From Eledone cirrhosa (taxonomy: Eukaryota), in NCBI GenBank assembly GCA_964016885.1, contig OZ024744.1:79422001-79486000 (forward strand): a stretch of DNA of 64,000 bases, read 5' to 3'. Position 1 is the stretch's first letter, and every line of letters begins with the position of its first letter. The notes beneath the pieces were generated by a model. That model saw nothing but the letters and a program-made list of their open reading frames with translations. It did no database searches and was not told the origin of the DNA. Shown one piece after another: positions 36,672-58,734 of the stretch. The position numbers were made by a program, and so were the translations under genes.

Positions 36672-36938
36672 ATATTAAAATATAAGTATTAATAAAATAG
36701 ATGTTCTTTTGATCAATTACATTTTATTAAACATATTTCGGATGTGCAACAGTACGTCCTCATCAGACAAAATATAATGATACATGACATGCCCTGAGAT
36801 GTTAAATGGTTAAGATTTAATCAGGGTATGTCATGTATCATTATATTTTGTCTGATGAGGACGTACATCCGAAATATGTATAATAAAATGTAATTGATCA
36901 AAAGAACATCCATTTTATTAATACTTATATTTTAATAT
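36672..36938. mobile_element. Fold-back element A with a hammerhead in each arm (36721-36773 -, 36845-36889 +)
   Basis: Arms 36672-36797 / 36821-36938; attttgt-CTGATGA-ggacgtacatcc-GAAA-tatgta-TA-ataaaat. Confidence 0.8.
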
Positions 36939-37915
36939 ATTTATGTATATATATATTTATATATTTATATATATGTAAATATATATCATTTCATTTTTCA
37001 TTTCATTTTACGTCCGCTTTTTCCCTGCTTGCAAGGGTGGGACGGGAACTGATTCTGGCTTGATTTCTACAGCTGGATGCCCTTCCTAACACCAACCTCA
37101 TTTACAGTGAGTGCTGGGTGCTCTTTTACCGTGGCACCTCCACGACCACTTTACAGTGGAATGATAGTCCTTATCATCTCATTTCTACAGCTGAGTAAAC
37201 TGGAGCAATGTGAAATAAAGTGTCTTGCTCAAGGAAACAACACATCACCCGGTCTGAGAATTGAACTCACAACCTTTCGATTGCAAGGCCAATGCTCGAA
37301 CCATTAAGCCATGTGCCTCCATATATATTTATGTAAATATATATATATATAAATATATACATATATATAAATGTATACATATGTATATATATATATATAT
37401 ATATATATATATATATATATATATATATATATATATATATATATATATATATATATATATATATATATATATATATATATATATATATATATATATATAT
37501 ATATATATATATATATACATATATACTCTTTTACCGCCATCCGGCTGAGACCATGCTATATATATATATATATATATATATATATGCAATCGAAAGGTTG
37601 AGTTCAATTCTCAGACCGGGTGATGTGTTGTTTCCTTGAGCAAGACACTTTATTTCACATTGCTCCAGTTTACTCAGCTGTAGAAATGAGATGATAGGGA
37701 CTGTAAAGTGGTCGTGGAGGTGCCACGGCAAAAAGAAAGCACCCAGCACTCACTGTAAATGAGGTTGGTGTTAGGAAGGGCATCCAGCTGTAGAAATCAA
37801 GCCAGAGTCAGTTCCCGTGCCACCCTTGCTAGCAGGGAAAAGTGGACGTAAAATGATGATGATGAAAAATGATGATATATATTTATATATATATATATAT
37901 ATTAGTATGTACACA

Positions 37916-38520
37916 TGGTGGCTGCCAACTCGTTTTCGAGTACGGCCACTACTTTATATCCATGTAGGAGAACCCCTACCGAAGCGCTGATCGAGTGTGA
38001 CTTTTTAGTCCAGCCAGCGACTTGAAAACTCTGGTACAAACACTACACTTGTGACAATTATTGACACATAGTGCTGGGCCCATGGTACCATGTGAGGACA
38101 AGTGCAGAGAGATCTCCAGATATAAAGCAATGCCTGTGCCGTGAAACTTTTATAGTGAGCAAAGGCACTGCACAAAGCCAGTCCCACTCTCTTAACCAAG
38201 ATGATATTTACCAAAAAGAAGAACAAGTTAACATCATTGGATACCATCAGGGTTGCAGGTGTTATATCAGAGTTTTCCTTCTCCTAGAATTCTGCCTTGA
38301 CAAAGGCTAAGGGGTCATCTCTCCCGGTGATTTTGGATGGCCATTGACTCTTAAGAGCTCCTTTGCCCTTTGACAGGTTTTGTTTTTAGTCCTGCAGGAT
38401 GTTCAAAGTCACCCTCCTCACCAAGAAACCTTGGTGGGGTTGCCAGTTTAGTCGCCAACGACCCGACCATGAGACAGGTTGTACTGGGATACATGTTACC
38501 AGTAGCACCAACTGGTGACC
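37916..38520 (-). mobile_element. Non-autonomous RTE-derived element (5' UTR fused to 3' end), collinear copy
   Basis: RTE 5' UTR-like gagaaggaaaactctg plus C2H2 terminus and 3' stem-loop; homologous to 18900-19446. Confidence 0.7.
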
Positions 38521-38524
38521 TGAC

Positions 38525-55612: not shown

Positions 55613-56610
55613 GTATAGTGCACACAATAATTATATGTGTATGGAGGCACATGGCTTAGTAGTTAGTGCATTGGCCTTGCAATAGAAAGGTTGTGAGTTC
55701 AATTCTCAGGCCGGGTGATGTGTTGTTTCCTTGAGCAAGACACTTTATTTCACATTGCTCCAGTTTACTTAGCTGTAGAAATGAAATGATAGGACTGGGG
55801 TCCCTATCATTCCACTGTAAAGTGGTCGTGGAGGTGCCACGGAAAAAAAGCACCCAGCACTCACTGTAAATGAGGTTGGTGTTAGGAAGGGCATCCAGCT
55901 GTAGAAATCAAGCCAGTGTCAGTTCCTGTCCCACCCTTGCAAGCAGGGAAAAGCGGATGTAAAATGATGATGATGATGATGTATGTAATTAAGCCCCCAT
56001 CAAATTTCTAAACCTGAACATAAATTACATCTAGAACAAACTCAAACTTATCTTCGGAATAAGACTTTTGAATGTTGTAACCCATTAACAATAAACTCAG
56101 AAAATCAAAGACAACTATAAACTCAACACCTATACTAGATCTAGAGGTGTAACTAGAGTATGGCAAACATGGCACATGAATGGGCGCCACATGGACTAGG
56201 AGCATGTTCTATTACAGCCAAATAAGTCTCATAGGGGAATGAAAAAAGAAACTCCTTCAGATGTATGAACTGTATCTGATTATCATGGGTGAGAACACTA
56301 TGGTGGCTGGATCATTAAACCATTTATACAAATTATTAGGTCCATAGGTAAAAATTCAGTGCTGGACAGGGGTACAATTTCACTGTTTGCCATAGGCCCT
56401 ATTTTCGCTAGTTATGCCTCTGACTCAGTCTCAGACACTATCTATATTTCCTGACTCTTATATTCCATAAACCACTAGTATAGGTGAGACAGACTTTATC
56501 AAGCTGCAGCTGTCATATTATGCAGTTTCTGTATAAAAAAAAAAAATTTAAATGACAAGCAAAACAGAATAATCAATTATCTTTTATCAAAGAGATATAA
56601 AAGTCTTTAA

Positions 56611-57570
56611 CCCTTTCAATATCATTTATCTAATGAAAAACACTGCTTGTGATTTTTAAATAATTTTGAAAATAATAAAGAATTTGGAAGTTCTTATGAA
56701 ATAATTGTTTCTACTTTTGGCACAAGGCCAGTAATTCCCCCAGTGCATTACTGGTGCTTTATTTTTACCGACCCTGTAAGGATGAAAGGCAAAGCTAACC
56801 TTTGCGGGATTTGAACATAAAGGGCCATAACGTTATGCTGCAAAGCAAGGTGTCTGATGCTCTACTGATACTGCCAGTCCACTGCCAGTTCTTATATGAA
56901 ATAATGTTAGAAAGTTTTTAGATAAATATAAATACTTTAATGACTAAATATTAACACTGCTTTTGATTTTCAAATAAAGAATTTAGAAGGATTTAGTAAT
57001 ATAACTACTTATCTCATTATTATCTGGTGTTTGAAGTAAAACAACTTAAAACGATAGAAGGTTTATAGATAAATATATACACTTTAAAATACAGGGTGGG
57101 CCAAAAGCCACTTCTTACCTATTTTTATTAATGGTATGGACATGTGATGTGCATGGAGGATGACTGCTGGGTAAAGAAGTGCCAAGAAATGCCAGTTGAA
57201 GGAAGACCACAAAAAACATGGGCGGAGGTGGTGAGAACAGACCTCAGATCGCTGAAGCTCACGGTGGAGATGACGAAGGACCGTGACAAGTGGAGAGATG
57301 CTGTGCTGAATAGGACCCGTTCCCACCCTTGCAAGCAGAGAAAAGCGGACGTAAAATTATGATGAAAACATTACAAATAAACTCAAAACTAAATTTTTTT
57401 GGATGGTGTATTTTTCCATAATTGGATCTTGTTTTTATTCAACTTTAATCTGAAAGGAAAAAAAAGAATATTTTAATAATAAAAACATTATAAATTTTTT
57501 TTAATAGGAAGTGACTTTTGGCCCACCCTGTATATAGTTTTGCATTGTGGGTGGTTTGGTATCAAAAGGG
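56611..57570. mobile_element. piggyBac-like MITE hosting nested insertions
   Basis: TTAA|ccctttcaatatca ... tggtatcaaaaggg|TTAA. Confidence 0.7.
57092..57530. mobile_element. Tc1/mariner MITE with an RTE 3' fragment (57132-57365) inside
   Basis: TA|cagggtgggccaaaag ... cttttggcccaccctg|TA. Confidence 0.82.
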
Positions 57571-58368
57571 TTAAGAAGTATAAAAGAGGCATGTGATGAA
57601 TGTGGTCTGCAGCTAACAGTATATTGTCATCTTATGAATATTTGAAAAAAGATTTATGAACCACCACAGACATGAGATTCATCTTTTGACTTGGCTGCTG
57701 TTGTTAATTAAACTGCTAACTGAAGAAAAAAAAGGAAATTTTAAAAGCTGGAAGTCGCTTTTTAAAAACTGCTTTGAAATGACAACAATAATAAAAAAAA
57801 AAGGAAAGGAAACAAAAGAAAAAAGAATAGGAAAATATAGAGAAAAGAAAGAAAAAAGACTGGGGACGGGATGGCAAGAACTCTGGTGTCACAGAATAGA
57901 GGGGAAGGTGATTGGGCTTTGGGCAGAAGGGCTGCATCCCGTGGGCAAGACCGTAAAAGCGGACAGTGATACCTGCTGCAACAGCCACCCCACCTTGCGG
58001 GGCTCCCTCCTCAGAGGGGCCCCCCGACGTTCCGATCTTGTGGAGGAGTTCGACTGTACGGGAGTCCAAGTATGTCTTGATTCCTCAATTAATGAGGATA
58101 TTCTTCCCTCAGTTTCACAAAGACCAGAAAACAGTACAGCTTGCTTGCAGTCTTAAACTTGGGCCATTTGATACTAAACCACCAGAAAACGCTGCCTCTG
58201 ATTTTATCTATTTTAAAGAGTTTGTTTATCTAAAAATTTTACTTTTATGTAAAAAAAAAAAAACAACAACCTTTGTTAAATTATGTAGAAGTTATATTTA
58301 ATTTGTTGGGATACAAGCAAATATTTTTATAACTGATATAAAGCACTCAACAAATTTTTGGAGTAAAA

Positions 58369-58734
58369 ATACAATATACTAACAAATGGAAACTATATTT
58401 ATAAAACCATATTTATTTCTTTATACATATTTCAAGGATACCAAAGCAAATTATGGTGCGCTTTCATCAGATAAAATATAATATAGATCAGTTTTATAAA
58501 CAAATATTGACATACCCTTAAAGAATGTAACCATGTCGGTTAGAAGCTCCCGGGAGCATCCAACCGACATGGTTGCATTCTTTAAGGGTATGTCAATATT
58601 TGTTTATAAAACTGATCTATATTATATTTTATCTGATGAAAGCGCACCATAATTTGCTTTGGTGTCCTTGAAATATGTATAATGAAATAAATATGGTTTT
58701 ATAAATATAGTTTCCATTTGTTAATATATTGTAT
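58369..58734. mobile_element. Fold-back element D, spacerless 366-bp near-palindrome with a hammerhead in each arm (58414-58478 -, 58625-58689 +)
   Basis: Centre ccc|ggg at 58551/58552; tattttat-CTGATGA-aagcgcacca..tggtgtcctt-GAAA-tatgta-TA-atgaaata. Confidence 0.87.

Follow-up and report, generated by a model that had tools for sequence, protein, structure and literature searches.

What are the four short inverted repeats, each holding two hammerhead ribozyme motifs, that lie in a 64,000-nucleotide stretch of the Eledone cirrhosa genome (assembly GCA_964016885.1, contig OZ024744.1, forward strand, positions 79,422,001 to 79,486,000; hereafter the window)? The window is AT-rich repeat DNA in a genome of 3.0 Gb. 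All four inverted repeats claimed by an earlier note on this DNA are present: A (36672-36938, with an arm identity of 87%), B (46734-47077, 95%), C (approximately 48328-48708, 78%) and D (58369-58734, 97%). The note took them for a family of miniature Penelope-like elements (PLEs) without an open reading frame (ORF). According to our analysis, they are very probably short stubs, arranged head-to-head, from the terminal repeat that holds the ribozyme in three coding PLE families of the Hydra type, inserted in (TA)n, and dead-end products that were likely built anew at each insertion.

The proposed link to the pseudo-long terminal repeats (pLTRs) of PLEs, and to the hammerheads that these carry, proved right. 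It is the ORF-less family that did not stand: for A, B and D the arms run unbroken into 3' untranslated regions (UTRs) and into ORFs with reverse transcriptase (RT) and GIY-YIG domains, and the junctions are not common to loci. A genome-wide search with element D, which the note had advised for copy number and a coding link, gave many copies and coding D parents. Forty scored loci matched the D arm with identities of 96-100%, and an upstream walk from D arms through a long 3' UTR led to RT and GIY-YIG frames in several of the eight regions fetched; the D parents are L061, L064 and L066, the longest of these regions. Regarding family B, the parent L131 (contig C2 of the same genome, 45667977-45672680) is an element of about 4.2 kb, in which an inverted tail-less arm is followed by a 5' pLTR and a tail that reads into an intact ORF of 737 amino acids, then by a 1.36-kb 3' UTR and a 3' pLTR with its tail. 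The tail-bearing arm of element B in the window is identical to the 3' end of L131 at 273 of 274 nt. In family A, the parents L154 and L156 show an ORF on the same strand, about 1.3-1.5 kb upstream of the A arm. The tail is the stretch that leads from the pLTR into the ORF; its exact matches in the genome amount to 826 for B, 750 for D and 582 for A, with none for the reversed controls. The fold-backs are almost certainly stubs of coding Hydra PLEs.

The single ORF of L131 encodes an RT with a C-terminal GIY-YIG domain and has the motifs LYRDD and IVY..YVG. Pfam gave only weak RT or GIY-YIG matches, all below the cut-off; in the D parent, GIY-YIG was matched with E=4e-4, under the curated cut-off, and the RT part had no match in the same search. 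The passages of PMC8557442 on the Hydra clade list as its diagnostics DKT, RW[K/R], a CxCx5C linker, and CxxC and CxH around E and N, in proteins with RT followed by GIY-YIG. DKT, in place of DKG, is found in the A, B and D parents, and RWR in A and B. Both CxCx5C and CxxC..E..N..CxH are complete in B and D, and the A parent piece has CxCx5C and a degenerate C-terminus. Judged by eye, CCHH is absent. The closest named homologue of the parent protein, from Argonauta (P0002), has RWK. By these motifs, A, B and D would belong to the Hydra clade of endonuclease-bearing (EN+) PLEs. They also share with EN+ PLEs the pLTRs, the inverted 5'-truncated copy, the one-sided tail and the hammerhead motif in the pLTR, and the hammerhead, the (TA)n targets and the truncated inverted copy are likewise seen in the Hydra clade (Penelope-13_HM in the same source). 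The differences lie in size (about 3.9-4.2 kb with a 3' UTR of 1.4-1.7 kb here, against generally <3 kb, which is a tendency in PMC8557442 and no strict criterion), in the tail (about 83-100 nt against 30-40), in a hammerhead unlike the Hydra-1_oBim row, and in a far higher copy number. In its supplement, the targets are given as (TA)n, and one Hydra family from Octopus has a hammerhead unlike ours. A, B and D are real and amount to new families; their clade and their architecture are both known, and they form no new class.

To see how the stubs are built, tail matches were taken in the order in which they lie in the genome. Family B contributed 90 loci, drawn from the first 100 of the 826 listed matches, and D and A the first 30 each. 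The B sample, minus one overlapping locus, six internal read-through tails and one tandem duplicate, gave 87 tails. An inverted partner of the same family accompanies 70 of the 87 terminal tails in B, 18 of 30 in D and 18 of 30 in A. A simple repeat, (TA)n or (CA)n, follows 144 of the 147 terminal tails, and target-site duplications are not readable within (TA)n. Arm lengths form a continuum from the tail only to more than 3 kb or full length. All 49 junction strings between two short B arms are distinct, and the B junction of the window occurs once in the genome. Since all the sampled B junctions differ, the hairpins were not copied as units.

The outer ends are fixed. One is the end of the tail; the other, without tail, precedes it by 83-89 nt in B and D. 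Position -83 or -89 is the end of 46 of 50 B partners, -83 that of 11 of 16 D partners, and 10 of 16 A partners share one end site. In A, B and D, a small RCTC/GAGY hairpin is found 4-8 nt beyond each of both ends (ACTC/GAGT at the first, GCTC/GAGC at the second). The second hairpin is confined to tails that continue into the leader of the ORF; terminal tails stop before it. Over 40 loci, paired arms show 39 differences in 5,981 columns (137.9 expected between loci) and have 79 minority variants in common (13.6 expected), so they come from a single source or were homogenised later. Seven B tail arms consist of the tail only and have no overlap with their partner, and among the 40 short pairs with arms of unequal length, 32 have the tail-less arm extending further 5' (hand count; p=0.0002); among long B copies, the tail arm is the longer one in three (L198, L199 and L224). 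Given the seven tail-only arms and the tail-less arms that reach further 5', a single cDNA that folds back cannot give all of the copies, while two primings can. The inner ends of B arms are no more than 15 nt apart in 31 of 49 pairs. Away from the initiator-like motif described below, this holds for 8 of 14 B pairs (3.4 expected, p=0.005), and the coincidence lends weak support to an origin of both arms from one RNA molecule.

Automatic assignment also proposed nine partners from another family; only L238 was convincing, and the rest look like low-complexity matches. At L238 (contig C1, about 402299800-402300215), one tailed arm of family A and one tailed arm of family B stand head-to-head with an overlap of a few bases and no (TA)n between them. 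This locus may result from the joining of cDNAs from two RNAs, or from a deletion between neighbours.

The inner ends pile up at a short motif, YCACT. Among the 189 ribozyme-bearing arms of the ordered samples, 125 reach within 13 nt of its A: 19 start exactly there and 51 in the next 13 nt, while the 25 nt upstream contain the starts of 11 and the remaining 44 continue past the motif. Hence 70 of the 125 stop within 14 nt of this A, a pattern seen in all three families. For B, the stop rate near YCACT is 1.7% per nt, in comparison with 0.04-0.6% downstream. The motif reads TCACT in A and B and CCACT in D, and the upstream contexts are unlike. A conserved motif that resembles a splice donor (GGTATGTC, with GTATGT) follows the initiator-like A by 38-44 nt in A, B and D, at 36826, 46926, 48553 and 58588 of the window. 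Drosophila Penelope is reported to have an initiator and an internal promoter, and its intron lies 46 bp beyond the start site (PMC2377424). We infer that the pile-up likely marks the transcript start, with RT running off the end of its template. If splicing joined GTATGT to the leader, an intron could contain the hammerhead together with the two RT start sites. A splice acceptor as the cause of the B pile-up was discarded, as the ends lie upstream of the nearby CAG, and an apparent spike of ends at -268 was set aside as partly an alignment effect of a variable stretch. The ends show no peak where the ribozyme would cleave: from 9 nt upstream to 3 nt downstream of that site, only 3 of 147 tail arms have their start (hand count), so there is no genomic sign that cleaved RNA served as template.

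In the model that we propose, the parent RNA would start at the A of YCACT and run through the hammerhead, the tail and the ORF. The RT-GIY-YIG protein would nick both strands of a (TA)n target, and two cDNAs would begin at two fixed positions on the RNA, both of which lie a few bases ahead of their own small RCTC/GAGY hairpin. With priming in the 5' leader, both cDNAs would run off the 5' end of the RNA within about 280 nt, and their joining by microhomology or snap-back would yield a mini hairpin; priming at the downstream repeat would produce long or full-length copies. These details of priming and run-off are the option that we slightly favour. The wider proposal is that the minis are a fossil record of Hydra PLE copying, that is, strong-stop-like cDNAs that were primed twice within the 5' leader of a single RNA, at sites marked by two hairpins, and that stopped by run-off at its capped start; we consider its chances evenly balanced.

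Several observations weigh against this picture. The variants common to both arms could reflect later conversion between them, and away from the initiator only 1 of 6 D pairs has inner ends within 15 nt (p=0.33). The RCTC/GAGY hairpins are weak (-1.5 to -6.6 kcal/mol), and a further PLE of the window, family E, has no such hairpin at its tail-less end. In L131 the first base of the 5' pLTR is 7 nt inside the initiator, so this copy may not use it. An untemplated G, as a cap might leave, is found in 8 of 19 arms at the initiator versus 30 of 100 in the matched comparison (p=0.30), and over all loci in 16 of 35 versus 59 of 176 (p=0.18); one sub-comparison of the matched run gave p=0.017, and a first count of 20/42 (p=0.006) had been made against a small, mismatched control. 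Contigs of the public runs examined contained no spliced joint and no defined start, with one of 24 runs recorded as RNA, at a share of 0.05; 19 of the 24 contained only 0.05 of the query words, and the one such run examined (X13) yielded nothing. The A junction of the window, as a 25-mer, occurs six times in the genome. The five other loci belong to different subfamilies with different tails, one having the tail on the opposite side and one lacking the left arm (and not being a fold-back), and the recurrence fits a microhomology hot spot. Finally, the Hydra membership is by motifs, not by a tree.

What, then, do the ribozymes do? As described in the note, all eight arms in the window contain CTGATGA...GAAA with an AUA triplet (UUA only in the left arm of A), and the motifs face outward. 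Stem III is a palindromic AT stretch, ATAT(G/A)TAT, in all eight. A strict scan for type I hammerheads was passed by four arms, compared with a mean of 0.02 (maximum 1) in 100 shuffles, and each of the other four failed by a single mismatch: pair 15.2-16.2 is broken in A-left, the second stem I pair in D-left, and both B arms have A.C at 10.1-11.1. The stem II of A-right is short by an 8-nt deletion, and in total five of the eight arms have a broken pair or a deletion in a stem. An Rfam search of the window found no hammerhead at E<=1. The note saw in stem II, which differs between families and still pairs, a sign of selection on structure. The first part is correct: the family-typical forms pair through differing sequences in A, B and D, with basal pairs, by eye, of GGA/UCC (A), AAG/CUU (D) and, with a mismatch at the fourth pair, AGG/CCY (B). 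Selection on the hairpins themselves was not borne out, and selection within the coding parents explains the pairing better. The positions of the common variants inside the B ribozyme, N7 and 11.1, are consistent with this. The A.C at 10.1-11.1 is present in 147 of the 162 B arms that bear the two commonest stem II forms, and a minor form, in 15 arms, restores A-U. Since the most amplified B form has this mismatch, efficient cleavage may not be required for the spread of the family. In the window, position 11.1 of the B hammerhead is at 47009 and 46802.

Predicted folds of monomers never form stem III. The rod-like fold that the note foresaw, with the sense core held by the antisense arm, was obtained as a prediction for both strands of all four elements, with the core fully paired. 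It does not support the self-regulated switch read into it: such a rod is the consequence of any inverted repeat and is not evidence for a selected switch. The ribozymes would be inherited passengers, which the antisense arm would block in a read-through transcript. Passages of PMC4209133 describe dual minimal hammerheads, 100-700 bp apart on opposite strands and probably from truncated PLEs, and report that minimal PLE hammerheads are low in activity, with none as monomers and weak activity as dimers. Small interfering RNAs from inverted Penelope copies have been reported in Drosophila (PMC3681739, in part), and processing of our hairpins by Dicer is plausible.

Could the hairpins be something other than stubs made one at a time? 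A non-autonomous fold-back family that copies itself, or retrozymes, moved whole by PLE proteins, would explain why there are hundreds of short copies of similar lengths, why 36 of 49 short B fold-backs keep both cores and why one A junction recurs, and animal retrozymes are proposed as non-autonomous PLE derivatives in the sections seen of bioRxiv 10.64898/2026.07.22.740005. We find this very unlikely, as not one B junction is repeated among 49, the other five loci with the A junction differ in subfamily, tail or polarity, the arms continue into coding parents over a continuous range of lengths, terminal tails end before the second hairpin, and retrozymes are defined as tandem direct repeats. 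A ribozyme switch selected for a host function is more improbable still. The predicted fold does sequester the core, but five of eight arms are damaged, each locus is unique, any inverted repeat folds in this manner, and minimal PLE hammerheads are inactive as monomers and weak as dimers in the text consulted (PMC4209133). The least probable account is that the palindromes are fold-back artefacts of the assembly. Palindromes in (TA)n are hard to assemble, and no read across a whole element was seen in the contigs of the public runs; against this, the arms differ by 3-22%, the one-sided tail and fixed ends recur at dozens of loci, and those contigs show other junctions between both arms, though the runs are possibly from the assembly's own sample.

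Two further alternatives concern how a stub arises, and are doubtful rather than remote. One is snap-back only, where a single cDNA folds and is copied as DNA with no second priming. It has in its favour the variants common to both arms, the inner ends close together in 31 of 49 pairs, and the palindromic junctions taken as self-priming in rotifer Penelope (PMC3846280, in the section consulted). It is nonetheless unlikely: the tail-less arm goes further 5' in most unequal short pairs, seven tail arms have no partner overlap, which prevents either arm from being simply copied from its partner, and L238 unites an A arm with a B arm. Within the double-priming model, snap-back may make the central joint. 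The other takes the pile-up of inner ends for an RT pause or a repair hot spot and not a transcript start. A long pyrimidine tract just upstream in B and the lack of a significant excess of untemplated G at the initiator speak for it, and we give it slightly more room than snap-back. It has to face the fact that the three families share the position of the mode, the A of YCACT, although their upstream sequences are unlike, and that the spacing to the donor-like motif matches that of Drosophila Penelope.

Double priming has counterparts in known systems. In LINE-1 twin priming, the two target strands prime two cDNAs and an inversion results. Our tail-only class, in which the arms do not overlap, resembles this outcome; the difference is that here the second start is fixed and the arms usually overlap, which gives an inverted duplication. 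The relevant passages of PMC8557442 present the inverted 5'-truncated copy and the one-sided tail as typical of EN+ PLEs and call the origin of PLE inverted repeats and tails undefined. Those of PMC3846280 describe rotifer inverted copies with a one-sided tail, palindromic junctions and a TCACT initiator-like motif. All these traits of EN+ insertions (also in the Fig. 2 legend of PMC8557442) are alike here, except that many of our insertions consist of nothing else and that their inner ends pile at the initiator, which those papers' passages do not report. In the green anole, Poseidon PAc has, as far as the excerpts of PMC11167929 tell, two adjacent internal RT starts that bound the tail, a predicted dimer, an AT-rich target and a tail that leads from the pLTR into the ORF. 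The starts of PAc lie within one AC-rich stem loop inside the ORF, whereas here the 5' leader contains both ends, and an RCTC/GAGY hairpin comes shortly after either of them. Non-LTR retrozymes, in the portion seen of bioRxiv 10.64898/2026.07.22.740005, are likewise short units that code for no protein, carry type I hammerheads and are related to the pLTRs of PLEs; in contrast to their tandem direct repeats, our pairs are head-to-head, their junctions are unique, and a coding parent has the same sequence. In the literature searched, with subscription journals thinly covered and one supplement included, we found no paper on the initiator pile-up or on twin hairpins in Hydra elements.

The hairpins of the window are thus ordinary transposon debris, and to annotate them as a ribozyme mini-element family would be wrong. 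What interest remains lies in a model that can be tested, in which cDNAs are primed twice and run off at the initiator. The value of the hairpins is mechanistic: a young family with an intact 737-residue protein and a short, defined RNA leader allows a direct in vitro test. L131 itself is intact and young, with family copies 99% alike, and is a candidate for biochemistry. If the fossil-record proposal is true, the start site and the two points of RT entry can be placed to the base from hundreds of loci, and PLEs gain an explanation for their inverted repeat and for their one-sided tail. If transcribed, the hundreds of long perfect hairpins per family could feed small-RNA silencing.

Regarding the individual arms in the window, the tail-bearing arm of element A (family A pLTR and tail; 36587..36823, minus strand) has its hammerhead core from 36766 and a predicted cleavage after 36728, at the UUA triplet. 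Its tail-less arm (36821..36938, plus) has the core at 36852 and a predicted cleavage after 36882, and carries the stem II deletion. In element B, the tail-bearing arm (46649..46922, minus; core from 46839) has its first base 7 nt inside the initiator-like A, and the tail-less arm (46923..47077, plus) has the core at 46972 with predicted cleavage after 47021. In element D, the tail-bearing arm (58286..58553, minus; core from 58470) begins 5 nt inside the initiator-like A and has a mismatch in stem I and another in stem II; the tail-less arm (58550..58734, plus) has the core at 58633 and a predicted cleavage after 58681. The one-sided tail noted earlier for B and D is there, and A, where it was overlooked, is likewise tailed (about 36587-36671). 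Element C had been described as an inverted repeat with an inverted tail in its spacer. It is instead made up of several pieces: an arm from a D-related subfamily, inverted and without tail (48336..48446, minus; core from 48438), is joined to a tail only, left by an internal deletion (48448..48503, plus), which is followed by (TA)n and then by a separate forward tail-less arm (48521..48697, plus; core at 48599). The tail thought to stand alone at about 43210-43270 is present as well, but the D-related piece, at 43211..43331 (minus) in (TA)n, also holds part of an arm, without ribozyme. An additional A-related 3' piece with tail and no ribozyme, absent from the note, lies at about 47240..47410 (plus).

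Family E, an unrelated and broken coding PLE, occupies 58750..62280 on the plus strand, with RT at 60237-60926, a GIY-YIG region at 61346-61879 and hammerheads at 58931 (minus) and 62028 (plus); a second copy lies near 39880-41260. It has the same layout of inverted tail-less arm and one-sided tail, and element D adjoins its tail-less end. Its hammerheads have CUGAAGA with a CUU triplet. By motif (a CX4CxxC linker and CCHH-like residues), family E appears to be of the Neptune type. Elsewhere in the window, 14983-16317, 20990-22252 and 41693-43219 are what we take to be RT fragments of RTE-like long interspersed nuclear elements (LINEs), the first two forming a 1.2-kb inverted pair with 98% identity, and 9289-12019 (minus) is presumably a broken LINE with RT and AP-endonuclease-like frames. 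Two tandem arrays were also observed, with 54-nt units at 23193-23939 and 48-nt units at 29757-30728, the first of which starts inside a dispersed repeat copy.

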